From Candidatus Acidiferrales bacterium (GTDB lineage: Bacteria; Chloroflexota; Dormibacteria; Aeolococcales; Aeolococcaceae), in contig DATLRX010000033.1 in NCBI GenBank assembly GCA_035534435.1, forward strand, positions 88,560-152,559: a stretch of 64,000 bases of DNA, given 5' to 3'. A model generated the notes under the pieces. That model was not told where the DNA came from, made no database searches, and saw only the letters and a program-made list of their open reading frames with translations. Position numbers and translations under genes: made by a program. Shown piece by piece: positions 10,576 through 44,058 of the stretch (position 1 is its first letter; every line of letters starts with the position of its first letter).

Positions 10576-11316
10576 TCACGCTCGCGAGGCCGCGGCGATG
10601 ATCGCGGCGAACTCCTCGGCTCGCAGACTGGCGCCCCCGACCAGCGCACCGTCGATGTCCCGCTCGGCGAACAGGGACGCGGCGTTGGCGGCGGTCACGC
10701 TGCCGCCGTACAGGACTCTCGGCTGCGCCTGCACGAATCTCGGACAGAGGTGCGCCTTGATGTGCGCGGTGACCTCCTGCGCCTGGTCAGGTGTCGCGGT
10801 GCGTCCCGTGCCGATCGCCCATACGGGCTCGTACGCAATCACGAACCCATCACTCGGTGCCGGCATCTCGAGCGAGAGGAACACGGCATCGAGCTGGCGG
10901 TCGACCACCTCAAATGTCCGATCGGCGTCGCGCTCATCCTCGGTCTCTCCGACGGCGAGGATGACGAGCAGGCCGTGCGCAAGCACGGCGCTGAACTTCT
11001 TCGCGACCTCGTCGTCGCGCTCACCGAAGACATGACGGCGTTCGGAGTGCCCGACCAGCGCGAGATCGCAGAGACCTTCGAGCATCGACGGTGAGATCTC
11101 ACCCGTGTACGCGCCCTTCTCGTCCCAGAAGACGTCCTGCGCACCGAGCAGGATGCCGGATCCCTCGATGACCGAGCGCACGGGCCAGAGGTGCGTGAAC
11201 GGCGGCAACATCGCAACCTCCACGCCGCGGATACCGGCAACTGCGGCGACGACGGCACCGGCCAGCGCCGTGCCCTCGGCAACGGTCGTGTTCATCTTCC
11301 AGTTACCGGCCACCAT
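10576..11316 (-). CDS. tpiA: triosephosphate isomerase
   Basis: MVAGNWKMN start motif, catalytic His/Glu context, YGGSV. Confidence 0.9.
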
Positions 11317-11351
11317 CGGCCGGCCGCCGGATGCCTCGGTGAGAGGCTCCG

Positions 11352-12548
11352 TCAACGACGGGCACCCTCACGGTCGCGGAGCGCGGCCACGCCCGGGAGC
11401 GTGCGTCCCTCGAGGAACTCGATGGTCGCGCCGCCACCAGTGCTGATGAAGCTGATCTGCTCTGCGACACCCGCGTCCTGCACGGCGGCGGCAAGGTCAC
11501 CGCCGCCGATCACCGATGTGGCGGATGAGGCAGCGACGGCGCGCGCAACGTCCCTCGTCCCGACGGCGAAGGATGGGATCTCGTAGATCCCGAGCGGCCC
11601 GTTCCAGATGATGGTCCCGGCGCCGCCGCAATCCGAGGCGATCCGTGCCACCGTGTCCGGGCCTGCGTCAACCACCGCCCACCCGTCGGGGATGCCGGTG
11701 TTCGCCACCACGCGTGTCGGCGCGTCAGCGTCGTCGACGCGTTCCGCGATGACCGCATCGGTTGGCAGCCGGATGTCGGCGCGACGACCGGCGGCGGCAT
11801 CGAGCAGCGTCCGTGCCGTTGCCACCTGGTCCTCCTCGACGAGCGACGTCCCCGTGGCCATGCCGAGGGCGCGATAGAAGGTGCACGCCATGGCGCCGCC
11901 GACCCAGAGGATGTCGACGCGGTCGAGGAGATGGTCGAGCACGCCGACCTTCGTCGAGATCTTCGAGCCGCCGACGATCGCGACCACCGGCGCGCGAGGA
12001 TTGTCCATGACGCCACCGAGCATCTCGAGCTCGCGCGCCATGAGCTTGCCGGCCACTGCCGGGAGCAGGTGCGCGACGCCCTCCGTGGAGGCATGCGCGC
12101 GATGCGCCGTGCCGAACGCGTCGTTGACGTACACGTCGGCGAAGGCGGCGAGCTGCTGCGCGAACGCCGGATCGTTCGATTCCTCACCGGGCTCGAAGCG
12201 GATGTTCTCGAGCATCCCGACGTCACCGTCGCGCAGCGATGCGACCATGCTCCTGGCGCCGTCACCGACCACGTCGGACGCGAGACGCACGTCGGCCCCG
12301 ATGAGGGTGCTCAGGTGCGTCGCCACGGGACCGAGGCGGAGCTTGTCGTCGATTCGCCCTTTCGGGCGTCCCAGGTGCGCCACGACGATGACGCGGGCGC
12401 CTCGAGCACGCAACGCCTCGATGGTCGGGATCGCCGCGCGAATCCGGCGGTCGTCGACGATCGCTCCATCGCGCATGGGCACGTTGAGGTCCTCGCGCAG
12501 CAGCACCCGCTGGCCGTGGACATCGATGTCATCGATGGTCGCCTTGTT
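11352..12548 (-). CDS. pgk: phosphoglycerate kinase
   Basis: [23 protein letters not shown]-terminus and PGK C-terminal GGGA...FLEG...LPGVAAL. The 587-aa track ORF is pgk plus a spurious upstream extension overlapping gap. Start approximate. Confidence 0.85.
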
Positions 12549-14480: not shown

Positions 14481-14894
14481 TCAGTCATAGCGCCGATCGG
14501 GCTTGTCGACGTCGCGATGGCTCACGGACACCACCAATCCGTCGGCACGGAGTCGCGCTGCCAGCGCCTCGACGATGGCGACGGAGCGGTGCCTCCCGCC
14601 GGTGCAGCCGACGGCGACGTGCAACACATCGCGTCCATGACCTGCCGAGCGCTCCACCGAGAACGTGACGAGCGCGCGAACGCGATCCATGAGCTCACCG
14701 GCCGCGGGATCCTCGAGGACATAGTCCCGCACCGCCGGCTCGAGACCGGTATGCGGCCGCAGCTCGGGAACCCAGAAGGGGTTTCTCACCATCCGCGCGT
14801 CCGCCGTCACCTCGGCCTCCGCTGGGAGACCGAACTTGAAACCGAAGGAGGCCAGCTCGACGCTCATCGGCGCGGGCGGCGCCACGTCGTTCAC
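14481..14894 (-). CDS. RapZ (YvcJ) C-terminal domain only
   Basis: 137 aa. SFGFKFGLP...RNPFW and GCTGGRHRSV motifs correspond to residues about 150-290 of RNase adaptor RapZ. No P-loop N-domain is encoded. 4-nt overlap with the uvrC stop. Confidence 0.6.
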   Translation of the reverse strand: MNDVAPPAPMSVELASFGFKFGLPAEAEVTADARMVRNPFWVPELRPHTGLEPAVRDYVLEDPAAGELMDRVRALVTFSVERSAGHGRDVLHVAVGCTGGRHRSVAIVEALAARLRADGLVVSVSHRDVDKPDRRYD

Positions 14895-16912
14895 AGGAGC
14901 TCCTTGACGCGGAGCGCCACCGGGCGTGGCACGACCGTCGTGAGCTGGTCGACCGGCGCGTCGCGGATGGCGTCGATGCTCCCGAAGTGACGCAGCAGCG
15001 CGCGCCTGCGCACCGGTCCGAGCCCCGGCACCACGTCCAGCTTCGAGCGCAGCGCCGCCTTCGCACGGCGTCCGCGATGGTGTGTGATGGCGAAACGATG
15101 CGCCTCGTCGCGCACCCGCTGCACCAGGAAGAGTGTCGGGCTGTCGCGTTCGAGGATGATCGGTCGTGCGCGTCCCGGCTTGTACAGCTCCTCGTTGCGC
15201 TTGGCCAGCCCGAAGACCGGCACCTGCTGCAGGCCGGCTTCGCGAAGCGCGCGCACCGCCGCGCTCAGCTGACCTTTTCCACCGTCGATGAGGACCAGGT
15301 CCGGCAGCACGGAGAAGCTGAGATCCGAGTCATCCCCGCCGCGACGCGGAGCGCGGCGCGCGCGTTGCTCGGATCCGTTCGCACCGGCCGGATCGAGGAC
15401 CGGGACGTCATCGGCTCCGCCCTCGTCGCGGGGCGCGAGCCTGCGGAACCGCCGGCGCAGCGTCTCCTCGATCGACGCGAAATCGTTGGCGCCCTCGACG
15501 GTCTTGATGCCGAAGTGGCGGTAGCTCGCCGGTGCCGGACGGCCTTCCTCGAAGACGACCATCGACCCCACGGAGTTGGTTCCCATCGTGTTGCTGATGT
15601 CGTAGCACTCGATGCGACGTGGTGGAGCCGGAAGCTGCAGGCTGGTGGCGAGGTCGTCGAGCAGCGCCTCAGTCTTCGCCGCGTCGTAGTCGTCCACGAT
15701 GCGTTGCTGGCGCAGGGCGACCATCGCCGTCTCCGCCGCTTGCGCTATGAGCCGGCGCGCGTCACCGCGTTGGGGGACGTGCACCTCCACCGGACCGCCA
15801 CGCTGTTCGGCAAGGAACTCCTCGAGAACAGCGCGACCGTCGATGTCGTCCGAGACGAGCAGACGCCGTGGGACCGAGGTCACGCTGCCGTAGTACTGCG
15901 GCAGGAATCCGGCGAGGCAGGCGGCGGCGTCCAGCCCCGTGACGCCTTCGAGCTCGTGCGTCTCCATGCCCATGACGCGTCCCTGGCGGATGCTCAGGAC
16001 GGCGGCCATCGCCCTGCCGCCCTCGACCACGACGGCGATGCAATCCTCGTCGGCGCGAGCGCCGCGAAGCACCGTCTGGCGCTCGCTGATGCGCTCGATT
16101 GCGCGCAGGCGGTCCCGAAAACGGGCGGCAAGCTCGTAGTCGCGACCATCGGCCGCGGCGTCCATCTGGTCGCGCAGCTCGTCGTGCAGCTTCTCCGAGC
16201 GTCCCTCCATGAACTCCTGCACCTGCTCGAGGATCTCCGCGTACGCCGGCGCGTCGATCCTGCCTTCGCACGGGCCTGAGCAGCGCTTGATGTGATAGTC
16301 GAGGCACACCCGTCCGCGCCGGAAGATCTCGTCGCTGCAGGTGCGAAAGGGGAAGATGGTGCGCAGCGATCGCACCGTCGTGCGCAGCGACTGCGCGCTC
16401 GTGTACGGGCCGAAATAACGCGCCCCGTCGCGGATCACCTTTCGCGTGTAGTAGGGCCTCGGGAACAGCGTCGCGCCTTCGGCACTCTTGCCGCGCGGCT
16501 TGCGCACCTCCTCGCGCGCCGTGCCCGGAGCGACCGCATCGTGGACGCCGGGCCGCGGGATCTTGAGGTAGAGATAGCTCTTGTCGTCCTTGAGGCGCAC
16601 GTTGAACCGCGGCCGGTGCTGCTTGATCAGCGAGTTCTCCAGCACGAGCGCCTCGTGCTCGCTCTGACACGCGATCACCTCGAAGTCGAAGACGCTCGCG
16701 ATGAGCTGATGCGTTCGCGCCTGCAACGTGTCGATACCCGTGAACCACGAGCGCAGGCGGTTGCGAACGTTCGCAGCCTTGCCGACGTAGATGACGCGCG
16801 CGTCGGCGCCGCGCATGACGTAGACGCCCGCGCCGCTCGGCGAGGCACGGAGCCGCGCCTTCAGCAGCGCGGGGTCGTCGAGAAGACGCTCTGCCCGCTT
16901 GGTCGGCACCAT
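14891..16912 (-). CDS. uvrC: excinuclease ABC subunit C
   Basis: GIY-YIG (GVYVMRGADARVIYVGKA), UvrBC-interaction region and C-terminal HhH. ATG at 16912. 673 aa after trimming the Arg-rich extension. Confidence 0.85.
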   Translation of the reverse strand: MVPTKRAERLLDDPALLKARLRASPSGAGVYVMRGADARVIYVGKAANVRNRLRSWFTGIDTLQARTHQLIASVFDFEVIACQSEHEALVLENSLIKQHRPRFNVRLKDDKSYLYLKIPRPGVHDAVAPGTAREEVRKPRGKSAEGATLFPRPYYTRKVIRDGARYFGPYTSAQSLRTTVRSLRTIFPFRTCSDEIFRRGRVCLDYHIKRCSGPCEGRIDAPAYAEILEQVQEFMEGRSEKLHDELRDQMDAAADGRDYELAARFRDRLRAIERISERQTVLRGARADEDCIAVVVEGGRAMAAVLSIRQGRVMGMETHELEGVTGLDAAACLAGFLPQYYGSVTSVPRRLLVSDDIDGRAVLEEFLAEQRGGPVEVHVPQRGDARRLIAQAAETAMVALRQQRIVDDYDAAKTEALLDDLATSLQLPAPPRRIECYDISNTMGTNSVGSMVVFEEGRPAPASYRHFGIKTVEGANDFASIEETLRRRFRRLAPRDEGGADDVPVLDPAGANGSEQRARRAPRRGGDDSDLSFSVLPDLVLIDGGKGQLSAAVRALREAGLQQVPVFGLAKRNEELYKPGRARPIILERDSPTLFLVQRVRDEAHRFAITHHRGRRAKAALRSKLDVVPGLGPVRRRALLRHFGSIDAIRDAPVDQLTTVVPRPVALRVKELL

Positions 16913-22025: not shown

Positions 22026-23159
22026 TCACGGTAGCGCAGCGGGTGCGGCCCCAGGCAGCCTCGGCATCCCGTCTGAGACGCCGCAGAGGATCTCGTGCGG
22101 CAGCGTCCCGGCCAGATCGCCGACCTCGTCGGCACCGATACGGACTCCGTCGCGTTCGCCGATGAACATCGCCACGTCGCCTGCCGCCACGCCATCGATG
22201 TCCGTGACGTCCACGCTGACCTGATCCATGCTCACCATCCCGACGATCGGGCAGCGGCGGCCGCGGATTGCGAGGTGTCCGCAGTTGGAGAGGGCACGCG
22301 GCAGCCCCTGCCCGTAGCCCATCGTCGCCGTGGCGATCCGGCGCGCCGTCTCGGCTCGCCACGTCCTCCCATATCCCACCGTTTCCCCCGGCGCGACCGT
22401 GCGCACCTGGGCGACCCTGCAGAACACATGCATCGCGGGCCGGAGCGACGGCGGTCCCGGCACCGGTGGATAGCCGTAGAACGCGATGCCGACACGGACG
22501 AGGTCGTGATGCATCGCCGGGTGCGCCAGCACCGCGGCGCTGCCCGACGTGTGCAGCAGCGCGTCCGGCGCAAGCGGTCGGATCACCTCGACCGCGTCGA
22601 GGAACCGCGTGTGCTGCGTGATGGTGAATGCCGAGTCCGAACCCGCGTCAGCGAAGTGCGTGAACAGGCCCGCCACCTCGACGCGCTCACCCGCGTCTCG
22701 CAGCGCCGCAACCAGAGACTCCACCGTCTCGGGAAGGGTGCCGAGCCGGTGGAGTCCACTGTCGATTTTGACGTGTCCGCGGACCCGGCGTCCCGTCCGG
22801 CCCGCGGCGGCTGCCGCGGCGCGAACACCGTCGGCGTCGAGGATGCCGATGTCGACATCGGCGTCGATCAGCCGGTCCTCCTGCCCTGGCGGCGTCCACC
22901 CGAGGACGAGCATCCGTGCCGTCACGCCCGCGGCACGCAGCTCGATCGCCTCTCCCGGCGTGTACACGCCGAGCCAGGTCGCTCCGCCGTCGAGTGCAGC
23001 CCTGGCGGCGATCCGGATCCCGTGCCCGTACCCGTTCGACTTGACCATGGCCATCAACCGGGCGGGACGGACCAGCGTCGCGATGACCGCCGCGTTGCGC
23101 GCCAGCGTGTCGACGTCGATCTCCACCCAGCGGAGGTGGTCGCCGGACGGTTCCGTCAC
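22026..23159 (-). CDS. alr: alanine racemase
   Basis: AMVKSNGYGHG PLP-Lys motif and C-terminal domain Tyr context. 377 aa. Confidence 0.85.
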   Translation of the reverse strand: MTEPSGDHLRWVEIDVDTLARNAAVIATLVRPARLMAMVKSNGYGHGIRIAARAALDGGATWLGVYTPGEAIELRAAGVTARMLVLGWTPPGQEDRLIDADVDIGILDADGVRAAAAAAGRTGRRVRGHVKIDSGLHRLGTLPETVESLVAALRDAGERVEVAGLFTHFADAGSDSAFTITQHTRFLDAVEVIRPLAPDALLHTSGSAAVLAHPAMHHDLVRVGIAFYGYPPVPGPPSLRPAMHVFCRVAQVRTVAPGETVGYGRTWRAETARRIATATMGYGQGLPRALSNCGHLAIRGRRCPIVGMVSMDQVSVDVTDIDGVAAGDVAMFIGERDGVRIGADEVGDLAGTLPHEILCGVSDGMPRLPGAAPAALP

Positions 23160-33081: not shown

Positions 33082-34236
33082 ATGGACGCGGAGATCGAGG
33101 CGACGACGCTCGCCGGCTCGCCGGACAACCTGATGTGGCCGATCCCGACGATTGCCCGCCTCGCGTGGGCGGCGATCTGGCTCGTCTTCCTCGGCTATCC
33201 GATCAGCGACATCCTCGGCACCGGCTACTCACCGACGCGGGCGGTCGTCGCATGGCTCTGTCTGGTCGCGTTCGCCTGCATGTACCTCCTGGCGATGTGG
33301 CTGTGCCTGTCACTCGTGCCACGCGTCGCCAACGGCATCCAGTTGCTGCCACTCGTGGCGGTGTTCGCGATGGGGATCGCGATGGCGCTCGTCTTCCGCG
33401 GACAGTGGACGGGGTTGCTCGTCTACTGCGGCGTCTCCGCCGGGTGGACGCTGCGCTGGCGCTATCTCGTCCCCGTGCTGTTCGCCCTCGGCGCCTTCAT
33501 GGTCGTCTCGGGTGTGTTGCTCGGCTACCCCTGGGCAGACCTGGGCTTCATCACCTTCCTGACCGTTGCGCTCGGGTTCACGATGCTGGCGTTCCGCCGC
33601 CTCATCGCAACGGTCATCGAGCTGCGCACCGCGCGTGCCGAGGTCGCCCGGCTCGCGGTCGCCGACGAGCGGCTGCGAATCTCGCGCGATGTTCATGACA
33701 TCCTTGGCCACAGCCTCTCGGTGATCGCGCTCAAGGCCCAGGTCGCCCGCCGCCTGATGACGAGCGAGCCGGAGGCCGCCGCCGAAGCGATGGGCGATGT
33801 CGAGACGGTCGCGCGTGAATCGCTCGCCGAGGTCCGCTCGATGGTCACCGCATACCGGCAGCGCTCGCTCGCCGACGAGCTGCAGGGGGCGCGCGACGTG
33901 CTCGACGCCGCCGGGATCAGTTTCGCGGTGACGCGCGACAGCATCGTGCCACCGGCGCCGGTCGACAGCCTGCTCGCATGGACGGTCCGTGAGGGCGTCA
34001 CGAACGTGCTGCGCCACAGCCGCGCGCACCACTGCGAGATATCGCTCGAAGCCGGCGACGGTGGCTTCTCCGTGGCGATCGTCGACGACGGCGTCGGCGG
34101 TGTGGCCAGCGCGGGAGGAAGCGGCTTGCACGGGCTCCGTGAGCGGGTCGGCGCCGCCGGCGGCCGCCTCGAAGCCGGCCCGCGGCAGCAGGGCGGATTC
34201 CGGTTGCAGGCGTTCATCCCCCAGGCTGCGGCGTGA
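33082..34236 (+). CDS. membrane sensor histidine kinase, DesK/LiaS-like (HisKA_3)
   Basis: Multi-TM N-terminus, H-box RISRDVHDILGHSLS, HATPase_c G-boxes (DDGVGG, GSGLHGLRER). Confidence 0.8.
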   Translation: MDAEIEATTLAGSPDNLMWPIPTIARLAWAAIWLVFLGYPISDILGTGYSPTRAVVAWLCLVAFACMYLLAMWLCLSLVPRVANGIQLLPLVAVFAMGIAMALVFRGQWTGLLVYCGVSAGWTLRWRYLVPVLFALGAFMVVSGVLLGYPWADLGFITFLTVALGFTMLAFRRLIATVIELRTARAEVARLAVADERLRISRDVHDILGHSLSVIALKAQVARRLMTSEPEAAAEAMGDVETVARESLAEVRSMVTAYRQRSLADELQGARDVLDAAGISFAVTRDSIVPPAPVDSLLAWTVREGVTNVLRHSRAHHCEISLEAGDGGFSVAIVDDGVGGVASAGGSGLHGLRERVGAAGGRLEAGPRQQGGFRLQAFIPQAAA

Positions 34237-34847: not shown

Positions 34848-35414
34848 TCAGTCGACGTACAGCGCCACGAGACCGTCCGGCTCGAGCGGCGGACGGGACA
34901 GGGCGAGCGGGATCGCGGCGGCGAGCGCCTCGGCGGGATCGATGACGACCATCGGGTCGAGGGGGAGCACGTCGCTGGTGAACACGACGCCCCCGCCGCT
35001 GTCGAACGCGCTGAGCAACACACGGCGCGGAGACGCGGCGGCCCCCGTGGTCGCGACGTAGAGGGCGCCGCGGCCGGCATCCGCGGCGACCCATGAACCG
35101 ACGTGCGCGCGTGAGAGCGGCGCGCTCGCGATCACTTCGAGCGAGCCGACGCCGTGGAGCGGCAGCCCACGGGCCTGGGCGATCCCGAGAGCGGCGGCCA
35201 TGCCCGCCCGGACGCCGGTATACGTCCCCGGTCCGACGACGACGACGACCACCCCGAGGTCGTCGGTGATCATCTGCAGGAGGAGACCCGGCAGGGAGGT
35301 CGCGACCTGTGCGCCACGCACCACCTCCGCACCACGGACGGTTCCGTCGCGACCGGCGCGGACCACGACGATCCGCGCACGCGACGACGTGTCGACGGCG
35401 AGCACGTCCGTCAC
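34848..35414 (-). CDS. tsaB: tRNA threonylcarbamoyladenosine biosynthesis protein TsaB (YeaZ)
   Basis: VLAVDTSS N-terminus and GPGTYTGVRAG motif. GTG start in GTGA overlap with the tsaE stop. Long Arg-rich track extension discarded. Confidence 0.75.
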   Translation of the reverse strand: MTDVLAVDTSSRARIVVVRAGRDGTVRGAEVVRGAQVATSLPGLLLQMITDDLGVVVVVVGPGTYTGVRAGMAAALGIAQARGLPLHGVGSLEVIASAPLSRAHVGSWVAADAGRGALYVATTGAAASPRRVLLSAFDSGGGVVFTSDVLPLDPMVVIDPAEALAAAIPLALSRPPLEPDGLVALYVD

Positions 35415-35875
35415 AGCCGGCTCCACGCCGGTGTGAGGTGGTCGGGTGCGCCCTCGTGCGGCGTGATCACGCGCGTCCCGTCGTCCTCGATCTCGAACCC
35501 GAGCCGGAGGTGCACGCGGCCCAGGAGCTCCGAGTGCTCGCCCCACTCGACGACCACCACGCCACCCGACTCGAGCATCTCGTCGACGTCGAGCAGGCGG
35601 ACGTCCGCGCCGGGACCGAGCCGGTAGAGATCGATGTGGTGCAGCACACGCGGTCCGGCGCGGTACACGTGATGGAGCACGAACGTCGGACTGCGGACCA
35701 GTGCCGGGTCCATGCCCATCCCGGTTGCGACGCCTCGCACGAGGACCGTCTTGCCCGCTCCGAGCTCGCCGCTGAGGAGGATGAGGTCGCCGGGCTCGGC
35801 ATGCGTGCCGATGCGCTCTCCGAGTGCGAGGGTGTCCGTCTCGCTCGCGCACCGGACGGCGGCGACGCCGGTCAC
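35411..35875 (-). CDS. tsaE: tRNA threonylcarbamoyladenosine biosynthesis ATPase TsaE (YjeE)
   Basis: GDLILLSGELGAGKT Walker A. Start inferred at the GTG abutting the thiL stop. Confidence 0.75.
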   Translation of the reverse strand: MTGVAAVRCASETDTLALGERIGTHAEPGDLILLSGELGAGKTVLVRGVATGMGMDPALVRSPTFVLHHVYRAGPRVLHHIDLYRLGPGADVRLLDVDEMLESGGVVVVEWGEHSELLGRVHLRLGFEIEDDGTRVITPHEGAPDHLTPAWSRL

Positions 35876-36915
35876 GTGAAGTGGCGCGAGGTCGTCCGCG
35901 GGGTCGCGACGCCGTCTCCTCCCTCCCGATCGAGGACGCCGACGCCGGCCCCGGCCCGCAAGCGCCCCACGACGCTGAGCGGGGCGAGATCGGAGGGCCA
36001 CGATCCCGCCAGCGTCGCCACCGCGTCGGGCGGCAGGGTCGCGACGAGCTCGAAATCCTCACCCCCGCCGAGCGCCAGGTCCGGCCACGCGGCGCCGAAG
36101 TCGCTCACCAGCGCGGCCTCCACGGGCACCCGGTCGAGCCAGACCTCGGCACCGCAGCCGGACAGGTCGGTGATCCGCTCCAGCTCGACGAGGAGCCCAT
36201 CACTGATGTCGCCGCCGCAGCGCACCCCGGACGCGACGAGGTGGAGCCCCTCGGCGAGGCGCGCGCTGGGCGCCAGCTGAGCCTCGACCCACGAGCGTTC
36301 CCGGCGGGAAAGGTCGTCGCCACCGTCGAGCAGCAGGCGGAGCCCCGCGGCGGCGCGACCGAGCATCCCCGTGACCACGATCACGTCCCCGGCGACACCG
36401 GCGTCGCGACGCAACTCCGTGCCGGGCGCAAGCGTGCCGCCCACCGAGACGTCGATGACGAGTGGTCCGTCGATGGCGCTGAGGTCGCCGCCCGCCACAG
36501 CGCAGCCGGCCGCGGCGGCCGCGGCGCAGAGGCCACGCTGGATCTCCAGGACGTCCTCGGCGCAGGTGCTCGAGGGCGCGCAGAGGGTGGCGGCGCACCA
36601 CGCCGGCCGGGCGCCCATGCCGGCAAGATCCGAGAGAGCGACCGCCATGGCGCGCGCCCCGAGCCGGCGGGGGGTGATCCAGGAGCGGCGAAAGTCGATG
36701 CCCTCGACGAGGGCATCCTGGCTGATGGCAACGTTCCGGCCGGGATCGGGAACCCACACGGCCGCATCGTCTCCGGTGCCCAGCGCCAGGCCCGGTCCCG
36801 TGCCGCGGGCGATCTCAGCCAGTGCCTTGAGTAGCTCGGTCTCGCCCACGTCGAGCAGGGTCGCGCCTCCGGTGTCGAAGCGTCGTTCGGGCATCACCTC
36901 AGCCTCCAACGTCAC
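35872..36915 (-). CDS. thiL: thiamine-monophosphate kinase
   Basis: AIR-synthase-related PurM-like fold: GDDAAV, ALSDLAAMGA-like ALSDLAGMGA. Confidence 0.8.
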   Translation of the reverse strand: MTLEAEVMPERRFDTGGATLLDVGETELLKALAEIARGTGPGLALGTGDDAAVWVPDPGRNVAISQDALVEGIDFRRSWITPRRLGARAMAVALSDLAGMGARPAWCAATLCAPSSTCAEDVLEIQRGLCAAAAAAGCAVAGGDLSAIDGPLVIDVSVGGTLAPGTELRRDAGVAGDVIVVTGMLGRAAAGLRLLLDGGDDLSRRERSWVEAQLAPSARLAEGLHLVASGVRCGGDISDGLLVELERITDLSGCGAEVWLDRVPVEAALVSDFGAAWPDLALGGGEDFELVATLPPDAVATLAGSWPSDLAPLSVVGRLRAGAGVGVLDREGGDGVATPRTTSRHFT

Positions 36916-37075: not shown

Positions 37076-38161
37076 TTGACGTTCAGCCGGAAGCTGGCCC
37101 TGACCGTGACAGGGGTCATCACTCTTCTGGCCACCGGACTCGGAGCCATCCCGAACACTCAGGCAAACAGCGCGCAGGTGCCGAACTCTGCGATCGCAGC
37201 GCTGCAACAGCGGCGCGCGGCACTCATCGCAGAGCTCGCCGCGTTGCAGCCTAACCTGAGGGCCGCGGGTGGATCGGTGGGTTCGGCGGAGGCGTTGTTC
37301 AACGCCCAGCAGACTAAGGTGCTGAACGAGCGCAAGCAGCTCGACAGTCTGAATGCGTCCCTGCTTTCGCTGAGCAGCCAGCTCGCGAGCAACGACGCAA
37401 CCGTCGCGCAGAACAAGGCACAACTCGCCGCGATCACTCGCGCGACGTACGAGACGAGCGGCAGCGACCAGGTGCTCGCCGCGGTGCTCAGCGCACCCTC
37501 ATTCAACCAGGCGATGGACGAGCTGAAGTCCGCGAACCAGGTGTCGCAGCAGGTGCTTGCGCTCGTCGAGCGGCTCGCCGGCGCGGATCGCGCCATCACC
37601 GCCGAGCAGTCGAGCATTCGTCGTGAAGCCGCCCAGGCGTCGACCATCGAGGCGCAACTTGCCGCGCAGAGCGATCAGCTCCTCGTCGTGCTCGAGAATC
37701 GCAACACCGTGTTCGCGGGCCTGAGCGGACCGGCGAAGCGGATCGCGGCGGAGATCGCCAACATCGACAACGAGATCGCGTTCCTCGAGGCGGGCCCGCA
37801 CGTCGGTACCGGACCGTGCGGCGACCACTTCGCGTATGGGTTCTGCACGTACTACGTGGCGACGCGTCGTTGCGTGCCATGGCTCGGCAACGCCGGTTCC
37901 TGGTACATCGCCGCCGCGCAGATGGGATACAAGGAGGGCTCGCTCCCGGTCCCCGGCGCGATCGTCGTCTTCAGGCCCGGCGTTGACGGCGTCAGCGCCG
38001 AGGGACATGTCGCGTACGTCGAGGCCGTCGGCCCCGCGGGCGGCATACCGACCGGAGACTTCAAGCTCTCCGAGATGAACTACGCCGGCTGGAACGTGGT
38101 CGACTACCGCGTCATCAGTGACGCGAGCGCAGACATCGAAGGGTTCATCTACGGCAACTAG
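37076..38161 (+). CDS. secreted coiled-coil + CHAP-domain peptidoglycan hydrolase (PcsB-like)
   Basis: TTG start 9 nt after GGAGGA. Signal peptide. About 200 aa of Ala/Gln/Leu-rich predicted coiled coil. C-terminal CHAP with Cys (CGDHFAYGFCTYYV) and His (GHVAYVEAV). Confidence 0.75.
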   Translation: MTFSRKLALTVTGVITLLATGLGAIPNTQANSAQVPNSAIAALQQRRAALIAELAALQPNLRAAGGSVGSAEALFNAQQTKVLNERKQLDSLNASLLSLSSQLASNDATVAQNKAQLAAITRATYETSGSDQVLAAVLSAPSFNQAMDELKSANQVSQQVLALVERLAGADRAITAEQSSIRREAAQASTIEAQLAAQSDQLLVVLENRNTVFAGLSGPAKRIAAEIANIDNEIAFLEAGPHVGTGPCGDHFAYGFCTYYVATRRCVPWLGNAGSWYIAAAQMGYKEGSLPVPGAIVVFRPGVDGVSAEGHVAYVEAVGPAGGIPTGDFKLSEMNYAGWNVVDYRVISDASADIEGFIYGN

Positions 38162-39396
38162 CGCGAGCTAGCGGCTTCGATCGCCTGGCGCAGCAACTCC
38201 TGCGCCGCCGGCAGCGTCTCGATCACATCCGACGCGAGCGCGCCCGCCCGCCCACGCCGAGCCTGCACCATCAATCCCGCCTGCGCGTGGATGGTGACGC
38301 CGGCAATCGCCGCGTCGCGTGGCGCCAGACCCTGCGCCAGCATCGATCCGATGAGCCCCGAGAGGACGTCCCCGGTGCCTCCCGTCGCCAGCGCGACGAC
38401 ACGGTGTTTGTCCACATGCAGGTCGTGCGCCGCACCCGCGATGACGGTCTCCGCGCCCTTGAGCACAACGATGACGCCGTGCTCGTCGGCATACCGCTGC
38501 GCGAGCCCGTTGCGATCGCCCTGCACCGCGTCGGTGGACATGCGTGCAAGACGGCCCATCTCCGCCGGATGCGGAGTCAGCACGACGGGCCGGCCGCACC
38601 GACGCCAGTCGAAGCCCGCCTCGGCCGCGATGTTGAGCGCGTCTGCATCAACGACAGCCGGGCACGGCAGATCGGTGAGGATCTCGAGCAGGGCAGGGAC
38701 CGTGTCGAGCGCGCGCCCGAGACCAGGCCCGATCACCAGCGCATCGGCACCGCGAAGCCGTTCACGAAGCTGCTCGACGCCCTGTGTACGCAGGGTTCCC
38801 GTCCCACCGTCGGCGAGCGCCGTCGGCATCACCTCGAGACACCCGGCGGCCACGATCGAGTGGATGCTGGCGGGGACGCAGACCTCGACAAGTCCCGCAC
38901 CGCCGCGCGCCGCACCGAGCGCGGCCAGCTTCGGGGCGCCGGTGAACCCCCGTGACCCGGCCACGACGACAACCCGTCCGAAGGTTCCCTTGTGGCCGTC
39001 GTCGGGGCGCGCGGCAAGCAGCAGATCCGCCGGCGCTTCAGGCAACGCCCGGCGGCGCGGCGTTCGACTCACTGCCACGGCGATCGCGAGACCGCCGTCA
39101 TGCGTCAGCGAGAGTGCGATCGGCGTTGCCTCGCCGCGCACGTGGACTCGCGGCGGTCCGCCACCAGCTCGCACGACCTCGATATCGCGATACGCCGGCA
39201 TGCGCTCACCCTGCGACGAGTAGAGCTTCATCACCGCCTCCTTGGCCGCCCACCGGCTCGCCCAGCGCTGTGGTCTGCCGGCGCTGTAGCGCTGCTCGCC
39301 CTCGGTGTAGATCTTCTGCGCAAAGCGCGGGTGACGCTCCAGAGCTGCCGCGATGCGATCCACCACGGTCACGTCGACCCCCACGACCATCGTCAT
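38158..39396 (-). CDS. fusion: holo-[acyl-carrier-protein] synthase (AcpS) + ADP-dependent NAD(P)H-hydrate dehydratase (YjeF C-terminal domain)
   Basis: The N-terminal ~110 aa are AcpS (GVDVTVVDRI...RWAAKEAVMK). The C-terminal ~290 aa are ribokinase-like YjeF-C (GSRGFTGA, VVDADAL, GGTGDVLSG). One frame, no stop. Confidence 0.75.
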   Translation of the reverse strand: MTMVVGVDVTVVDRIAAALERHPRFAQKIYTEGEQRYSAGRPQRWASRWAAKEAVMKLYSSQGERMPAYRDIEVVRAGGGPPRVHVRGEATPIALSLTHDGGLAIAVAVSRTPRRRALPEAPADLLLAARPDDGHKGTFGRVVVVAGSRGFTGAPKLAALGAARGGAGLVEVCVPASIHSIVAAGCLEVMPTALADGGTGTLRTQGVEQLRERLRGADALVIGPGLGRALDTVPALLEILTDLPCPAVVDADALNIAAEAGFDWRRCGRPVVLTPHPAEMGRLARMSTDAVQGDRNGLAQRYADEHGVIVVLKGAETVIAGAAHDLHVDKHRVVALATGGTGDVLSGLIGSMLAQGLAPRDAAIAGVTIHAQAGLMVQARRGRAGALASDVIETLPAAQELLRQAIEAASSR

Positions 39397-39403
39397 ACGA
39401 CGA

Positions 39404-41236
39404 CTATTCCACAGTCACCGATTTCGCGAGGTTTCGTGGCTGGTCCACGTCGCACCCGCGCTGCACCGCAACGTGATACGCGAACAGCTGCATCGGGATG
39501 ACGTTGATCAGCGGCGACAGCACCTCGGAGCAGCCGGGAACCGCGATGGTGCTCGCGAACCCGGCGTCAAACGGATCCTCACCCTCGGTGACGATCGCGA
39601 TCACCGGCGCGTCGCGCGAATGCACCTCCTGCACGTTGCTCACCATCTTCGGGAGCGTCGCAGAACGTGTCGCGATCGCGACCACCGGGACCTCGGGCTC
39701 GAGGAGCGCGATCGGCCCGTGCTTCAGCTCACCGGCGGCATAGCCCTCGGCGTGCACGTACGAGACCTCCTTGAGCTTGAGCGCACCTTCCATGGCAATC
39801 GGGAAGTTGATGCCACGACCGATGTACAGCGCGCTGCGCGCGTGCGCAAACCGCTGGCCGAGATCGACGAGCAACGGCTCCAGCTCGAGCGTCCTGGTCA
39901 GCAGATCGGGCACCTGCTGGAGCTCTGCGACGAGACGCTGATGCTCGGCGACGTCGAGCGTGCCGCGCGCGTCCCCGAGCCGGAGCGCCAGGAGCAGGCC
40001 GCAGACCATCTGCGTCATGAACGTCTTCGTGCCGGCCACGGAGATCTCCGGCCCCGCCTGCATGTAGAGCGCGCCGTCGGCCTCGAGTGACAGCGCGCTG
40101 CCGACCACGTTGGTGATGGCGATGACCTGCGCGCCCGCACGCCGGGCCTGCCGGACGGCGGCGAGCGTGTCCGCGGTCTCGCCGGACTGCGACACCGCAA
40201 TCACCAGGGAATGCTTGTCGACGAGTGCCTCGCCGTAGCGGAACTCGCTTGCGGCCTCGACCTTGCAGCGCAGTTTGGCCAGGTGCTCGATCGCGTAGCC
40301 TGCGACCATCGCCGCGTACCACGCGGTGCCGCAGGCGACGAGAACGACCTCGTGGACCTCCTCGAGCCGTCCGCTGTCGAAGCCGAGCTCCGGCAGCACG
40401 ACCATGCCGAGGTCGTCGATCCGGCCGCGAAGCGCGTTGCGCACAGCCTCCGGCTGTTCGTGAATCTCCTTGAGGAGGAAGTGCGGGTAGCCGTTCTTCT
40501 GCGCCTGCTCCGCCTCCCAGTCGACGGTGACCACCCGGCTTTCGACGGCGGTGCCGTCGAGCTGCTGCACGCTGATCCCCTCGGGCGTCGCGGTGACGAT
40601 CTCGCCCTCTCCGATCAGCGCGATGCGCTTGGTGTACGGGATCAACGCGGTGATGTCGCTGCTCACGAACACCTCACCGCGCCCCAGCCCGACGACGAGC
40701 GGGGCGTTGACGCGTGCGCCGACGACTCGGTCCGGTTGATCCGCGGAGATGACGACCAGCGCGCACGCACCCTCCATGCGGTTGAGCGCGCTGCGCACCG
40801 CCGCCGCGAGGTCGCCGTGGTAGTTGTCCTCGATGAGGTGCGGCACAACCTCGGTGTCGGTTTCGCTGAGGAACTCGTGCCCTCGAGCCATGAGCTCGGC
40901 GCGCAGCTCGCGATAGTTCTCGACGATGCCGTTGTGGATGACGTGGATCCGTCCGGTGCAGTCCTGGTGCGGATGAGCGTTCTCCACCGACGGACGGCCG
41001 TGGGTGGCCCAGCGCGTGTGCCCTATGCCGACGTTGCCCGACGGCAGGCCGTCCAGGCCGACCTCGCGCGCGAGCTCAGCGACCTTGTGCGTGTTCTTGA
41101 CGGTGGTGACGTCACCGGACGCGTCGATGATCGCGATCCCGGCCGAGTCGTAGCCGCGATACTCGAGCCTGCGAAGGCTGTCGAGCAGGATCGGGGCTGC
41201 GGGTCGGGGGCCGGCGTAGCCGATGATGCCGCACAT
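39404..41236 (-). CDS. glmS: glutamine--fructose-6-phosphate aminotransferase
   Basis: MCGIIGY Ntn start, two SIS domains, C-terminal ...SVTVE. Confidence 0.95.
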   Translation of the reverse strand: MCGIIGYAGPRPAAPILLDSLRRLEYRGYDSAGIAIIDASGDVTTVKNTHKVAELAREVGLDGLPSGNVGIGHTRWATHGRPSVENAHPHQDCTGRIHVIHNGIVENYRELRAELMARGHEFLSETDTEVVPHLIEDNYHGDLAAAVRSALNRMEGACALVVISADQPDRVVGARVNAPLVVGLGRGEVFVSSDITALIPYTKRIALIGEGEIVTATPEGISVQQLDGTAVESRVVTVDWEAEQAQKNGYPHFLLKEIHEQPEAVRNALRGRIDDLGMVVLPELGFDSGRLEEVHEVVLVACGTAWYAAMVAGYAIEHLAKLRCKVEAASEFRYGEALVDKHSLVIAVSQSGETADTLAAVRQARRAGAQVIAITNVVGSALSLEADGALYMQAGPEISVAGTKTFMTQMVCGLLLALRLGDARGTLDVAEHQRLVAELQQVPDLLTRTLELEPLLVDLGQRFAHARSALYIGRGINFPIAMEGALKLKEVSYVHAEGYAAGELKHGPIALLEPEVPVVAIATRSATLPKMVSNVQEVHSRDAPVIAIVTEGEDPFDAGFASTIAVPGCSEVLSPLINVIPMQLFAYHVAVQRGCDVDQPRNLAKSVTVE

Positions 41237-41270: not shown

Positions 41271-42242
41271 TTACGGGACCGGGGGTGTCGGGGACGGTGT
41301 CGGAGTTGGTGGTGTGGGGATCGTCGATATGACGATGGTCACGGTGACCTTTCCGGCGCGCGTCGTGACACCAGGCGGGAGGACGAGGGTCACCGACTGT
41401 GTGTACGTCCCGAAGACGCCGTTCAGGAACACCGGCGAGGTCGACACCGAGTCGATCCCGTTGAGGAGATCCTGAGGCCCGGTGATCTCGATCGTCAGCG
41501 GTGAGGCGGTGACGGCGGCCAGGTAATGACCCGGGGATGCCGTGCCCTCGGTGCGCGGGATGACGGCGACGAGTCGCTGGGTCACATCCGCGCTGATGGC
41601 GATGCTGACGCTGACGTTGGTGTGGTTGATACCGACATCGTTCAGGCGCACGCCCTTCGCGTCATAGGCGAGCACACCCAGATCCGCCTGGAAGTTGGCC
41701 TTCTGGGTGGCGAGGTCAACAGTGACGCGGGCCTGGATGCCGGCCAGCTCGCGCGCCGGCCCTTCGATCACCACCGACGAGGGGGTCACCTGTTCGACCC
41801 CGCTCTCGTATCCCACCGGCGGCGGATTGGTGATGACGATGGTCACGGGCACCGACTTCGACTCGAACGCGTCCACGTCGATCGTCACCGACGTCGGTGG
41901 GTCGATGAGCTCGATCGCCGGGTCGTTGTTGACGACGGTGATGGGAATCGCATAGACGCCGGTGCGCGTCACGCTCGACCAGTGAACGGTGACGCTCAGC
42001 GCCGTCGCGGGATTGAGTGACGACAGCGTGTTCTGATCACCGCCGACGCGCACCGACACGTCCTGCAGCGGATGCACGAGCACGAACTGCGAGGGAATCG
42101 CGCTCGTCAGCACCGGGACGGTGACCAGTCTCGTCTCCGGCGGATTGCCCGCATACACGACACCGACCCACGTGACGAATGCGATGAAGAAGCAGCCGAC
42201 CTTCAGCTTCCAGTTGCGGCTGATGAAGCCCGGGAAGCTCAC
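41271..42242 (-). CDS. cdaR: CdaR-like YbbR-domain regulator of diadenylate cyclase
   Basis: N-terminal TM helix, repeated beta-rich YbbR-like modules, Pro/Thr-rich tail. ATGA overlap with cdaA. Confidence 0.65.
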   Translation of the reverse strand: MSFPGFISRNWKLKVGCFFIAFVTWVGVVYAGNPPETRLVTVPVLTSAIPSQFVLVHPLQDVSVRVGGDQNTLSSLNPATALSVTVHWSSVTRTGVYAIPITVVNNDPAIELIDPPTSVTIDVDAFESKSVPVTIVITNPPPVGYESGVEQVTPSSVVIEGPARELAGIQARVTVDLATQKANFQADLGVLAYDAKGVRLNDVGINHTNVSVSIAISADVTQRLVAVIPRTEGTASPGHYLAAVTASPLTIEITGPQDLLNGIDSVSTSPVFLNGVFGTYTQSVTLVLPPGVTTRAGKVTVTIVISTIPTPPTPTPSPTPPVP

Positions 42243-43108
42243 GAATGCGACCGGCGTCCGAGCGTGCGCAGCGTCCCCACCCGTGACAGCGGGCGGAGCC
42301 TCCCGAGCCGACCCGGGCCGCCTTCCTTCTCGAGCAGTGTGACCAGCATCTCGTGCAACTTTCCCTGGTCGAGCCCGCGATACAGCTTGCCGTCATGGGC
42401 GACGCTGATCAGGCCGGTCTCCTCACTGACGATGAGCACGACGGCATCGCTCTGCATGCTGAGCCCGAGCGCCGCTCGATGCCGTGTCCCCATGCGTCCC
42501 ACCCCGGGCAGCGTCTCGGCAAGCGGGAGCACGCACCCGGCGGCCACGAGCCGGTTCTCGTGGATGATCACCGCGCCGTCGTGGAGCGGCGATCCCGGGA
42601 TGAAGATGGTGGCCAGCATCTCGGCGGTCACCTCGCCGTTGATGTGGACGCCCGTCGCAGAGAGGTTCTCGAGACCCGTCTCGCGTTCGAAGACGATGAG
42701 CGCGCCGACCTTGCGCTCGGCGAGGGAGCCGCCGGCACGCAGCACCTCATCGACGATCCGCGAGAACGCGAGCTCATTGTGCCGCCCGAGCACGTTGCGG
42801 ACGGTCCCGAGCCTGCCCACCTGGTCGAGCGCGCGGCGGAGCTCCGGCTGGAAGAGGACGATCGCCGCGATGACGATTGCCTGCGTGCCGTTGCTGAAGA
42901 TGAACTCGAGGAGCCTGAGGTGAAGCAGCTGCGCCGCCCATCCGACGACGAAGATGACGCCGAGCCCGAGGAGCAGCTGGACCGCCTGTGTGCCGCGGAT
43001 CAGCTTCAGCAGCTGGTAGAGCAGGAAGGCGACAACCAGGACGTCGATCCCGTCCCGCCAGCTGAGGCTCTGCAGGAAGAAGTGCGCGTTGCGAAGCAGG
43101 TCGCTCAT
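42239..43108 (-). CDS. cdaA: diadenylate cyclase CdaA (DacA)
   Basis: Three N-terminal TM helices, then a DAC domain with DGAVII and RHRAA motifs. ATG at 43108. Track extension trimmed. Confidence 0.85.
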   Translation of the reverse strand: MSDLLRNAHFFLQSLSWRDGIDVLVVAFLLYQLLKLIRGTQAVQLLLGLGVIFVVGWAAQLLHLRLLEFIFSNGTQAIVIAAIVLFQPELRRALDQVGRLGTVRNVLGRHNELAFSRIVDEVLRAGGSLAERKVGALIVFERETGLENLSATGVHINGEVTAEMLATIFIPGSPLHDGAVIIHENRLVAAGCVLPLAETLPGVGRMGTRHRAALGLSMQSDAVVLIVSEETGLISVAHDGKLYRGLDQGKLHEMLVTLLEKEGGPGRLGRLRPLSRVGTLRTLGRRSHS

Positions 43109-44058
43109 GCCGCGACGTCGCCCTCCTGGGCGTAGATGCGCGCGAGCAGCGCCTGCTGCACCCAGAGGCGATTCTCCGCCTGGGCGAACACGATCGAGTG
43201 CGGGCCGTCGATCACCGCGTCGGTGATCTCCTCGCCACGGTGCGCGGGCAGGCAGTGCATCACCCTGACCCCGGCCGGCGCCAACGCCACGAGCGCGTCG
43301 TTCACCTGCAGGCTCGCGAAGTCCTCGCGGCGTTGCTGCTGCTCGGTTTCCTGACCCATGCTCGTCCACACGTCCGTATAGATGATGTCGGCGTCGCGGA
43401 GCGCCGGCGCCGCCTCGTGCTTGATGTCGAAGACCGTTGCAGCGTCGCGCAGGCCCTCTGCCCGCCGGAGCACGGCGTCGGGCGGCTCGTAGCCGGGTGG
43501 GCAGATCACGCGCAGATGCACCCCGAGAAGCGCGGCGGCGTAGATCCACGAGGTGCAGACGTTGTTGCCGTCCCCGATGTACGCCACGGTCGCGCCTTCG
43601 AGACGGCCCGTCGTCTCGCGCACGGTCATGCAGTCCGCGAGCGCCTGGCAGGGGTGCTCGGAGTCGGTGAGCGCGTTGATCACCGGGGACGCGGCCGCCG
43701 CGGCGATGGTGACGAGGTCGCGGTGGGAGACGAGCCGCGCGACGATGCCGTCGGCGTACCCGTCGAGGATGCGGCTGATGTCACCGGCCGATTCGCGCTC
43801 CCCGAGCTGGACCTCGGGGTTGAAGAGTGCGATCGGATGACCGCCGAGGCGATTGATCGCAACCTCGAAGGACACTCGCGTGCGGTTGCTGGGACGCTGG
43901 AAGATGAGCGCCAGGGAGCGGCCCGCGAGCGGGCGGCCGAGATCGCGCCCCGCCTTGGCGGCATCGGCCAGGTCGAGGGTCGCGATGATCTCGTCGGTGC
44001 TGAGGTCCGCGATGCTCAGGAGATCGCGGCCGGCGAGCGAATGGTGCATCCGCCTCAT
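43105..44058 (-). CDS. argF: ornithine carbamoyltransferase
   Basis: SNRTR (STRTR variant), HPCQ, HCLP motifs. Start at the internal Met (approximate). Confidence 0.85.
   Translation of the reverse strand: MRRMHHSLAGRDLLSIADLSTDEIIATLDLADAAKAGRDLGRPLAGRSLALIFQRPSNRTRVSFEVAINRLGGHPIALFNPEVQLGERESAGDISRILDGYADGIVARLVSHRDLVTIAAAAASPVINALTDSEHPCQALADCMTVRETTGRLEGATVAYIGDGNNVCTSWIYAAALLGVHLRVICPPGYEPPDAVLRRAEGLRDAATVFDIKHEAAPALRDADIIYTDVWTSMGQETEQQQRREDFASLQVNDALVALAPAGVRVMHCLPAHRGEEITDAVIDGPHSIVFAQAENRLWVQQALLARIYAQEGDVAA

Follow-up and report, generated by a model that had tools for sequence, protein, structure and literature searches.

AcpS is a homotrimer with active sites between its subunits, and transfers phosphopantetheine (P-pant) to apo-ACP. 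The stand-alone AcpS proteins of Streptomyces coelicolor (2jbz/2wdy), Mycobacterium tuberculosis (4hc6/3hqj) and Bacillus subtilis (1f80) share a fold of ~110-120 amino acids and a set of motifs with the N-terminal half of the protein described here, which like acpS of Actinomycetota is encoded after glmS, but which differs from them in that a 290-aa domain covalently follows and in that it falls below the NCBIfam equivalog cut-offs. This second domain is the same C-terminal dehydratase as in bifunctional Nnr/YjeF (Escherichia coli YjeF; Thermotoga maritima TM0922, 2ax3/3rss), at 33-34% identity, and the glmS/acpS/alr/tsaE neighbourhood is shared as well, whereas the N-terminal partner of the dehydratase is the YjeF_N epimerase in Nnr/YjeF and AcpS here. 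Stand-alone NnrD (B. subtilis YxkO, 1kyh/3rph; Enterococcus faecalis EF1790, 2r3b) likewise has no fused epimerase and is structurally close (TMt 0.82-0.86), but lacks the additional N-terminal enzyme domain. A precedent for an AcpS-type domain inside a larger multifunctional polypeptide is the C-terminal PPT domain of the fungal type I FAS alpha subunit (4v58, 2wat), which also came up among the PDB sequence and Foldseek matches; however, its partner is its own substrate-bearing synthase, whereas here a metabolite-repair enzyme without any known connection to ACP takes that place. Another case of uncoupled Nnr halves is At5g49970 of Arabidopsis, a plant NAD(P)HX epimerase-PPOX fusion in which one half is attached to an unrelated enzyme of cofactor metabolism (PMC5938422), but there the epimerase half is joined to a vitamin B6 enzyme, while here the dehydratase half is joined to a CoA/ACP enzyme. 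Clustering of acpS with yjeF has been recorded in seven phyla with unclear significance (PMC5938422), and beyond that remark the literature searched contained nothing on an AcpS-YjeF fusion.

In this study, a complete fusion ORF was identified on the minus strand at 38158..39396 of the window (the whole 64-kb stretch of DNA analysed), where it is listed as a single ATG-started ORF that codes for 412 aa and ends in TAG (38158-38160); the plus-strand frame over the same interval is interrupted by a stop. The sequence-only reading, which named no strand, had proposed AcpS and YjeF_C in one uninterrupted frame, and this is borne out: the protein consists of an AcpS domain, a short coil and a complete YjeF_C domain (~124-411), in that order, and its AF2 model shows two compact domains with a coil between them (pLDDT 94.3). 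All four motifs quoted in that reading were located, GVDVTVVDRI at residues 6-15, RWAAKEAVMK at 48-57, GSRGFTGA at 147-154 and GGTGDVLSG at 339-347, and the Pfam annotation that it had called for returned both ACPS (PF01648) and Carb_kinase (PF01256) and no YjeF_N. Its further concern, the reading frame across the junction, was settled by reading the sequence through, which revealed neither a stop nor a frameshift between the ACPS and YjeF_C halves. Two genes merged through a frameshift, an assembly error or a missed stop, or two halves made separately by internal initiation, would offer another explanation, since high-GC DNA yields long spurious ORFs and among the database relatives P0131 (645 aa) is plainly the product of a frameshifted read-through. 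However, the collinear ACPS-YjeF_C architecture was present in 120 of the 120 best 90%-identity protein clusters, which come from independent assemblies, thus the fusion is not a product of assembly or gene calling, and an uninterrupted frame of 398-445 aa recurs in more than 140 independent clusters or genomes, including complete chromosomes and one cultured isolate. In addition, the aligned ACPS and NnrD segments lie only ~46-58 nt apart in every Dormibacterota locus. This recurrence refutes a merging artefact, and we consider an explanation of this type, internal initiation included, barely credible.

The AcpS-type (group I) 4'-phosphopantetheinyl transferase domain occupies residues 1-112 (39061..39396, minus strand). 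Pfam ACPS matches residues 5-108 with 48.8 bits (cut-off 25), and the NCBIfam PPTase domain model TIGR00556 gives 58.8 bits (cut-off 45.35), while the AcpS equivalog models all remain under their curated cut-offs (e.g. NF000832, 64.6 vs 107; TIGR00516, 36.4 vs 59.8). A passing score at the domain level alone marks the AcpS half as divergent, and its assignment rests on this match together with fold and residues. AF2 places the AcpS strands and helices at residues 2-112 with pLDDT ~88-98, Foldseek retrieved AcpS of S. coelicolor, B. subtilis and Streptococcus pneumoniae (2jbz, 1f80, 1fte; TMt 0.72-0.78, E ~1e-7), and the best sequence matches of this half are actinobacterial AcpS. D8, E53 and K57 (the E-x-x-x-K motif) and the pair H99-D100 are conserved; all of 32 divergent fusions carry E53 and K57, and D8 and H99 each occur in at least 90% of them. 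The Mg2+/CoA-binding residues of B. subtilis AcpS, which we take to be Asp8, Glu58 and Lys62, and the His-Asp pair of S. coelicolor AcpS mutated in entries 2wds/2wdy (H110A/D111A), which corresponds to H99-D100 of the fusion, were matched to this numbering by motifs and not by structural superposition. The N-terminal ~112 residues would act as a Mg2+-dependent AcpS that transfers 4'-phosphopantetheine from CoA to apo-ACP, with active sites at subunit interfaces.

The failure of every AcpS equivalog HMM to reach its cut-off would also fit a half that is no longer a working PPTase and instead acts in the place of YjeF_N, as a scaffold or a module for oligomerisation, with the real AcpS or Sfp-type PPTase encoded elsewhere. 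Against this, D8, E53, K57 and H99 have been kept over deep divergence, the AcpS half is the best-conserved portion of the protein (mean identity to 119 homologues of 84%, compared with 77% for the dehydratase half and 51% for the linker), it sits in the canonical acpS slot after glmS, and the fusion is the sole AcpS-like ORF, as it is the sole YjeF_C-like ORF, in the 64-kb window. We therefore regard a loss of PPTase function as very improbable. To judge from these conservation figures neither half is decaying, and catalytic-type residues are invariant or at least 90% conserved across the 32 fusions, down to 31% identity.

Residues 136-412 (38161..38991, minus strand) form the YjeF_C/NnrD domain, a predicted ADP-dependent (S)-NAD(P)H-hydrate dehydratase. 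The Carb_kinase model matches residues 142-396 over profile positions 1-241 of 242 (180.5 bits, cut-off 27) and NCBIfam TIGR00196 (yjeF_cterm) matches residues 124-398 (210.1 bits, cut-off 129.85). TM0922 (2ax3, E 3.6e-45) and YxkO (1kyh/3rph) are among the PDB sequence matches, and in Foldseek the domain superposes on TM0922 (2ax3/3rss) with an rmsd of 1.8-1.9 A over ~277 columns (E 1e-25) and reaches a TMt of 0.86 against 3rph; none of the PDB sequence or Foldseek matches is a solved chain spanning both AcpS and YjeF_C. The HKG, TPH..E and GGxGD motifs, the last with the catalytic Asp, are conserved, and K136, D250, D252, T274-P275-H276, E279, K313 and G340-x-G342-D343 are invariant across the 32 fusions. 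The C-terminal ~290 residues are thus predicted to regenerate NAD(P)H from (S)-NAD(P)HX with consumption of ADP, where ADP rather than ATP as phosphoryl donor and specificity for the S-epimer are assumed from bacterial precedent (PMC5938422).

The two domains are joined by a coil of ~20 residues (residues 113-135, TPRRRALPEAPADLLLAARPDDGH; 38992..39060, minus strand), the C-terminal half of which already belongs to the N-terminal extension of YjeF_C, as TIGR00196 begins at residue 124. AF2 assigned no secondary structure to residues 113-135, with a pLDDT of 69 in the block 111-120, and residues 111-125 are the least conserved segment of the fusion, at the linker identity given above. Pfam detected no YjeF_N in the protein even at E<=1, and a custom YjeF_N HMM, trained on the N-terminal halves of 89 Nnr proteins, four of them spot-checked with Pfam, detected none in a six-frame search of the 64-kb window and none in the flanks of 24 related loci (443 kb), where positive controls worked. 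The proposed absence of YjeF_N from protein and linker is upheld by Pfam, the custom HMM and the short modelled coil alike, which together rule out a cryptic or degenerate YjeF_N hidden in the linker. In keeping with this, the Nnr equivalog NF007856 scores 160.8 bits against a cut-off of 703, with the match confined to the C-terminal half of the model, and no epimerase activity is expected from the fusion protein. The same HMM found no tri-domain ACPS-YjeF_N-YjeF_C intermediate among 296 fetched proteins: P0131, as a read-through, does not qualify, and in P0138 the linker of ~100 aa consists of low-complexity sequence and not of YjeF_N. The epimerase has been described as dispensable, with the dehydratase occurring alone in 168 genomes, and NAD(P)HX epimers equilibrate with a half-life of ~40 min (PMC5938422). 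In the host of the fusion R-to-S epimerisation would be spontaneous, or else fall to an unlinked epimerase; the absence seen around the locus may hold genome-wide. The earlier statement that a phosphopantetheinyl transferase replaces the epimerase holds as to position, but not as to function, since there is no sign that AcpS substitutes for the epimerase.

The gene directly upstream of the fusion is glmS (39404..41236, minus strand; Pfam GATase_6/7 and SIS). Its stop and the ATG of the fusion are 7 nt apart, thus the two genes are probably co-transcribed or translationally coupled, and the order glmS-then-fusion is repeated in 24 related loci. On the other side lies a convergent CHAP-domain gene (37076..38161, plus strand; Pfam CHAP), the stop of which overlaps that of the fusion in a palindromic CTAG (38158-38161) and which bounds the glmS-fusion transcription unit on its 3' side; a CHAP gene beside the fusion is conserved in locus L081 and in the loci of the window's clade. 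Acidimicrobiales have glmS-acpS-nnr(YjeF_N+YjeF_C)-alr, where acpS and nnr abut but are distinct genes. The two are separate, overlapping ORFs in loci L031 and L033, separate and adjoining in a Chloroflexota locus (L065), and adjacent also in a Selenomonadales locus (L028). A deep Dormibacterota clade has glmS-ACPS::NnrD-alr, which equals the Acidimicrobiales cluster minus ~600 nt of YjeF_N, while the clade of the window retains glmS-ACPS::NnrD with alr displaced. In the window alr (alanine racemase; 22026..23159, minus strand; phmmer with the Alr of L031, E 1.7e-65) lies ~15 kb away from the fusion, whereas in Acidimicrobiales and in the deep Dormibacterota clade it directly follows nnr or the fusion. 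Joint loss of YjeF_N and alr, which would have backed a link between the epimerase and PLP, was rejected on the grounds that the deep clade keeps alr right behind the fusion, and in the clade of the window it has only been relocated. An AcpS-NnrD-Alr super-fusion, suggested by long stop-to-stop segments at two loci (L018 and L019), was likewise rejected as a high-GC open-frame artefact, its frame differing from that of the fusion.

The sequence-only reading had derived the fusion from acpS and nnr as separate neighbours after glmS, and the comparison of gene order in Acidimicrobiales and Dormibacterota corroborates this origin. The starting point would have been the widely conserved acpS | nnr(YjeF_N-YjeF_C) pair downstream of glmS, from which the YjeF_N module was putatively lost and the frames joined before the sampled Dormibacterota clades diverged, either by a single deletion or by domain loss followed by loss of a stop codon. 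Taken together, we think it probable, with good though not complete confidence, that the fusion, in a bacterium of Candidatus Dormibacterota, is a bifunctional AcpS/NnrD housekeeping enzyme formed from the acpS | nnr pair after glmS; its halves, with a short flexible coil between them, most likely act independently. Points against this reading are the divergence of the AcpS half and the fact that AcpS is a trimer and YjeF_C a tetramer, with symmetries that are incompatible in a simple closed oligomer, which might impair one of the two activities or require an unusual assembly. This natural trimer-tetramer fusion presents a small structural puzzle.

The earlier description of the fusion as lineage-specific understates its spread. 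It was found in 23 species-representative genomes of Candidatus Dormibacterota and is phylum-wide there, and it occurs again in ~25 divergent Clostridia/Tissierellia clusters, including Oscillospiraceae and the cultured Levyella massiliensis. Dormibacterota entries already in the databases, such as the "Multifunctional fusion protein" of Ca. Dormiibacter inghamiae (UniRef100_A0A934NB40), have the same architecture at 43-86% identity, whereas the Firmicutes fusions (L. massiliensis WP_019189571.1; Clostridia MAG MBQ7109356.1) have the same architecture at only ~31-40% identity. In per-domain score rankings the unfused homologues of each half come ahead of the other fusion group, and the gene context of the Firmicutes fusion (L024) differs from that in Dormibacterota; because of these two observations the Firmicutes fusion probably had an independent origin. 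In a bootstrapped NJ tree of YjeF_C the two groups fall in different regions, with deep nodes at 0-1% support.

An apparent origin of the fusion at least two times, in different contexts and from halves nearer to unfused homologues, raises the question of a real functional coupling, in which the linkage of AcpS to the dehydratase would tie fatty-acid/ACP metabolism and NAD(P)H repair together. It might take the form of local protection of the FAS NADPH pool, of cross-regulation by the adenine-nucleotide ligands CoA, 3',5'-ADP and ADP, or of YjeF_C acting on a second substrate related to CoA. That AcpS stays with the dehydratase while the epimerase goes is in line with such coupling, as is the crystallisation of YjeF proteins with CoA among other adenine-nucleotide ligands. 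On the other hand, a short and unstructured linker of low conservation is what simple tethering would give, fusions between translationally coupled neighbours commonly arise as neutral events, and the C-domain tree does not separate single from multiple origins; coupling thus seems unlikely to us. With equally modest expectation, the recurrent epimerase-free AcpS-NnrD fusion may be a Rosetta stone that connects holo-ACP/CoA metabolism with the YjeF_C dehydratase. The link may consist in adenine-nucleotide cross-talk (CoA, 3',5'-ADP, ADP), in a CoA-related second substrate, or in NADPH repair at the site of fatty-acid synthesis, and an unusual higher-order assembly, forced by the fusion of a trimeric with a tetrameric enzyme, might accompany it. 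If true, such a link would account for the clustering of acpS and yjeF in seven phyla.

Given its spread and its earlier deposition in RefSeq and UniProt, the fusion is a tidy and fairly ordinary domain rearrangement, and it does not overturn present understanding. By separating the Nnr halves it shows that the dehydratase half by itself can maintain the conserved acpS-yjeF association, a complement to the published case for assigning the vitamin B6 association to the epimerase half, and it adds a further phylum-level case of a seemingly dispensable epimerase. Its main value lies in the Rosetta-stone hint that joins AcpS to the dehydratase half and in annotation hygiene. PGAP labels the fusion "NAD(P)H-hydrate dehydratase", inside which the only recognisable AcpS of Dormibacterota and of many gut Clostridia is hidden, and JGI often labels it "NAD(P)H-hydrate epimerase"; as a consequence of these names, metabolic reconstructions will mistakenly count AcpS as missing and the epimerase as encoded.

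A single ATG-initiated ORF of 412 aa occupies 38158..39396 on the minus strand in the ORF listing of the window, and the plus-strand frame over the same interval is broken in translation. The sequence-only reading had described one uninterrupted frame joining AcpS to the YjeF_C dehydratase domain without the YjeF_N epimerase domain, and this is confirmed: all four motifs it quoted occur in the minus-strand translation, the junction DNA between the domains contains no stop or frameshift, and Pfam assigned residues 5-108 to ACPS (PF01648, 48.8 bits against a cut-off of 25) and residues 142-396 to Carb_kinase, the NAD(P)H-hydrate dehydratase (PF01256, profile positions 1-241 of 242, 180.5 bits), with no YjeF_N match even at E<=1. 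In NCBIfam, TIGR00196 (yjeF_cterm) covers residues 124-398 (210 bits against 129.85), and TIGR00556, a domain-level model, is alone in exceeding its cut-off on the AcpS half (58.8 against 45.35), none of the AcpS equivalog models reaching theirs. The bifunctional Nnr equivalog NF007856 scores 160.8 against a cut-off of 703, matching through the C-terminal half of the model only. The protein has the domain, fold and motifs of an AcpS-type PPTase with scores under the equivalog cut-offs, agrees with NnrD in every testable respect, and differs from bifunctional Nnr in lacking the defining YjeF_N.

A confident AlphaFold2 model (mean pLDDT 94.3, pTM 0.80), built from an alignment of 32 divergent fusions, has one compact domain at residues 1-112 and another at ~136-411, linked by a coil without secondary structure (pLDDT 69 for block 111-120); as modelled, this linker is too small and cannot conceal a 170-aa epimerase domain. 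Foldseek searches of the PDB matched the C-domain to Thermotoga maritima TM0922, with E 1e-25 and an rmsd of 1.8-1.9 A across ~277 columns, and to Bacillus subtilis YxkO, and the N-domain to AcpS of Streptomyces coelicolor, B. subtilis and Streptococcus pneumoniae (TMt 0.72-0.78); among sequence and Foldseek matches, no solved PDB chain spans both domains. Since AcpS forms trimers and YjeF_C forms tetramers, how the fusion assembles into an oligomer is a mildly interesting question. The fusion P0138 (473 aa) carries a ~100-aa low-complexity Ala/Asn/Ser linker between its two domains, which is not YjeF_N.

Across 32 aligned collinear fusions with only 31-58% identity to the window protein, E53 and K57 of the AcpS E-x-x-x-K motif are invariant and D8 and H99 are kept in at least 90%, and in the dehydratase half K136 (HKG), D250, D252, T274-P275-H276, E279, K313 and G340-x-G342-D343 are invariant. 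Averaged over 119 Dormibacterota homologues, identity to the query (cluster representative P0001, used in scripted comparisons and 2 residues different from the window protein) reaches 84% in the AcpS half and 77% in the dehydratase half, and drops to 51% in linker residues 111-125. Neither half, judged by its sequence, looks like a decaying remnant, and no second AcpS-like or YjeF_C-like ORF occurs in the 64-kb window. The proposals that the AcpS half is merely a scaffold, or that the fusion reflects an artefact or internal initiation, are minor and poorly supported. Beyond what was observed, namely the domain architecture and fold, the conserved residues, the gene order and the distribution, we infer both enzyme activities and the mutual independence of the halves, and consider it quite probable that the protein is a bifunctional housekeeping enzyme with independently acting halves: the AcpS half would phosphopantetheinylate apo-ACP from CoA, the other would act as ADP-dependent (S)-NAD(P)HX dehydratase, both would be co-expressed from the glmS operon, and NAD(P)HX epimerisation would be left to chemistry.

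A custom YjeF_N profile was trained on 89 classical Nnr proteins, in which YjeF_N and YjeF_C are combined, using their N-terminal halves (four spot-checked with Pfam, all four with YjeF_N). It found no YjeF_N in the six-frame window (best E 1.5, with filters off), in 443 kb of sequence surrounding 24 fusion loci of Dormibacterota or in any of the ACPS-containing proteins fetched, and it recovered the domain in five control loci (E 1e-25 to 3e-72). Extrapolating from the window and these related loci, the epimerase may be absent genome-wide, or it may have been relocated; loss of YjeF_N is unremarkable in light of the literature (PMC5938422). In four Phycisphaerae loci (L026, L027, L029, L030) neither YjeF_N nor AcpS was detected beside the YjeF_C gene, and these represent further stand-alone dehydratases.

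The minus-strand order in the window is OTCase-cdaA-ybbR(cdaR)-glmS-fusion, the fusion ATG lying 7 nt beyond the glmS stop, followed by a convergent CHAP-domain gene (37076-38161, plus strand) adjoining the fusion 3' end and then by thiL-tsaE-tsaB. Window marker proteins were mapped onto 29 loci to obtain a gene-order series. Acidimicrobiales loci L031 and L032 have glmS-acpS-[~600 nt]-NnrD-alr, where YjeF_N fills the gap (E 1e-36 to 1e-38 with the custom HMM) and acpS and nnr are separate ORFs in different frames, abutting or overlapping; an unfused acpS followed by YjeF_N-NnrD also occurs in Chloroflexota (Thermoflexaceae, L065) and Selenomonadales (L028). A deep Dormibacterota clade (L014, L016-L019, L021, L023) has glmS-ACPS::NnrD-alr-CHAP-thiL, with the aligned halves only ~50-60 nt apart and alr directly 3' of the fusion (~11280-12470), as it is 3' of nnr in Acidimicrobiales. 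The window's clade keeps this order except that alr (at 22026-23159, minus strand, in the window) is displaced by ~15 kb, leaving CHAP as the gene adjoining the fusion. The suggested origin from separate neighbours acpS and nnr after glmS is supported by the unfused order in L031/L032 and the fused order without YjeF_N in Dormibacterota. The simplest history would be that such a pair lost its YjeF_N module and was joined in frame before the Dormibacterota clades diverged; the data cannot decide between one deletion and two steps, in which the domain went first and the acpS stop codon later.

The two TAG stops of the fusion and CHAP genes overlap in a common palindromic CTAG (38158-38161), and within the window's clade most of the related Dormibacterota loci keep a convergent overlap of 4-17 nt. 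A HisKA_3 histidine kinase (33082-34236, plus strand) interrupts the tsaE-tsaB ... rimI-tsaD block, which is conserved apart from this insertion; the syntenic locus L081 has it too (14741-16332), with a response regulator as its partner. Taken as longest ORFs, cdaA (42239-43549, minus strand; 436 aa against 289 aa in L081) and the tsaB-like gene (34848-36062, minus strand; 404 aa against 187 aa, also overlapping tsaE) are over-extended at the N-terminus, which is typical high-GC ORF inflation.

The in-frame fusion stood, but its supposed lineage specificity did not. ACPS+Carb_kinase is present in 120/120 of the top-ranked clusters at the 90% level (399-418 aa, 73-100% identity), the named ones being Candidatus Dormibacterota MAGs, and 23 loci from a scan of species-representative genomes (L001-L023, at 58-85% identity) have the fusion at full length; nearly all belong to Dormibacterota, and one lies on a complete 3.34-Mb chromosome. 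Six of these (L001, L004, L014, L017, L018, L021) carry submitter taxonomy of Saccharimonadales, Chloroflexia or Actinomycetes; their sequence identity of 58-85% and identical 10-gene synteny place them in Dormibacterota, and they are probably mislabelled MAGs. When 1.84 billion representatives at 50% identity were searched exhaustively, 37 of the 150 best matches were collinear fusions, down to 33% identity. Named members of the divergent clusters come from Clostridia, Oscillospiraceae and Ruminococcaceae MAGs, from cultured Levyella massiliensis (WP_019189571.1, 445 aa) and from Candidatus Dormiibacter inghamiae. Being found across Dormibacterota, Clostridia-type clusters and existing database entries, the architecture is widespread, already deposited and not a private oddity of the source genome.

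For the dehydratase half, Dormibacterota-type fusions scored highest (220-350 bits, one at 194), followed by ~90 classical Nnr (185-206 bits), with Clostridia-type fusions level with or under those. For the AcpS half, Dormibacterota-type fusions mostly scored 84-197 bits, with a few divergent ones at 41-63, and Clostridia-type fusions mostly 30-37 bits. Some 50 stand-alone AcpS of actinobacteria and planctomycetes reached 47-64 bits, with the caveat that their loci had been chosen beforehand through a motif they have in common with the query. The neighbourhood of Clostridiales locus L024 is unrelated (pheST present; glmS, alr and tsaE absent). This ranking and neighbourhood suggest that the two groups are likely independent, convergent fusions; a bootstrapped NJ tree placed them in different regions, with deep nodes lacking support. 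Recurrent fusion always keeping the dehydratase half fits the main rival, genuine functional coupling of AcpS and dehydratase, without demonstrating it, and acpS-yjeF clustering has been recorded in seven phyla with 'unclear' significance, possibly tied to NADPH use in lipid synthesis (PMC5938422); we regard coupling as rather improbable beside two independently acting halves.

The fusion is another member of an ACPS-Carb_kinase architecture already present and partly annotated in databases, and our literature search found no paper discussing an AcpS-YjeF fusion. As a Rosetta stone it gives a modest hint that, of the two Nnr halves, it is the dehydratase to which AcpS is linked, and its main value is annotation correction, for AcpS hidden under a dehydratase name and for JGI epimerase names given to proteins without an epimerase domain. 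The Candidatus Dormiibacter inghamiae fusion is a 'Multifunctional fusion protein' in UniProt, and PGAP names all of the named divergent-cluster members just 'NAD(P)H-hydrate dehydratase'; all AcpS equivalog HMMs scoring below cut-off would account for AcpS missing from the names. Many of P0002-P0120, homologues of the query, are named 'NAD(P)H-hydrate epimerase' or 'dehydratase / epimerase' by JGI, yet have no YjeF_N domain. In a further homologue, P0131 (645 aa), the C-terminal ~420 residues are an Arg-rich out-of-frame read-through, a frameshifted gene call.
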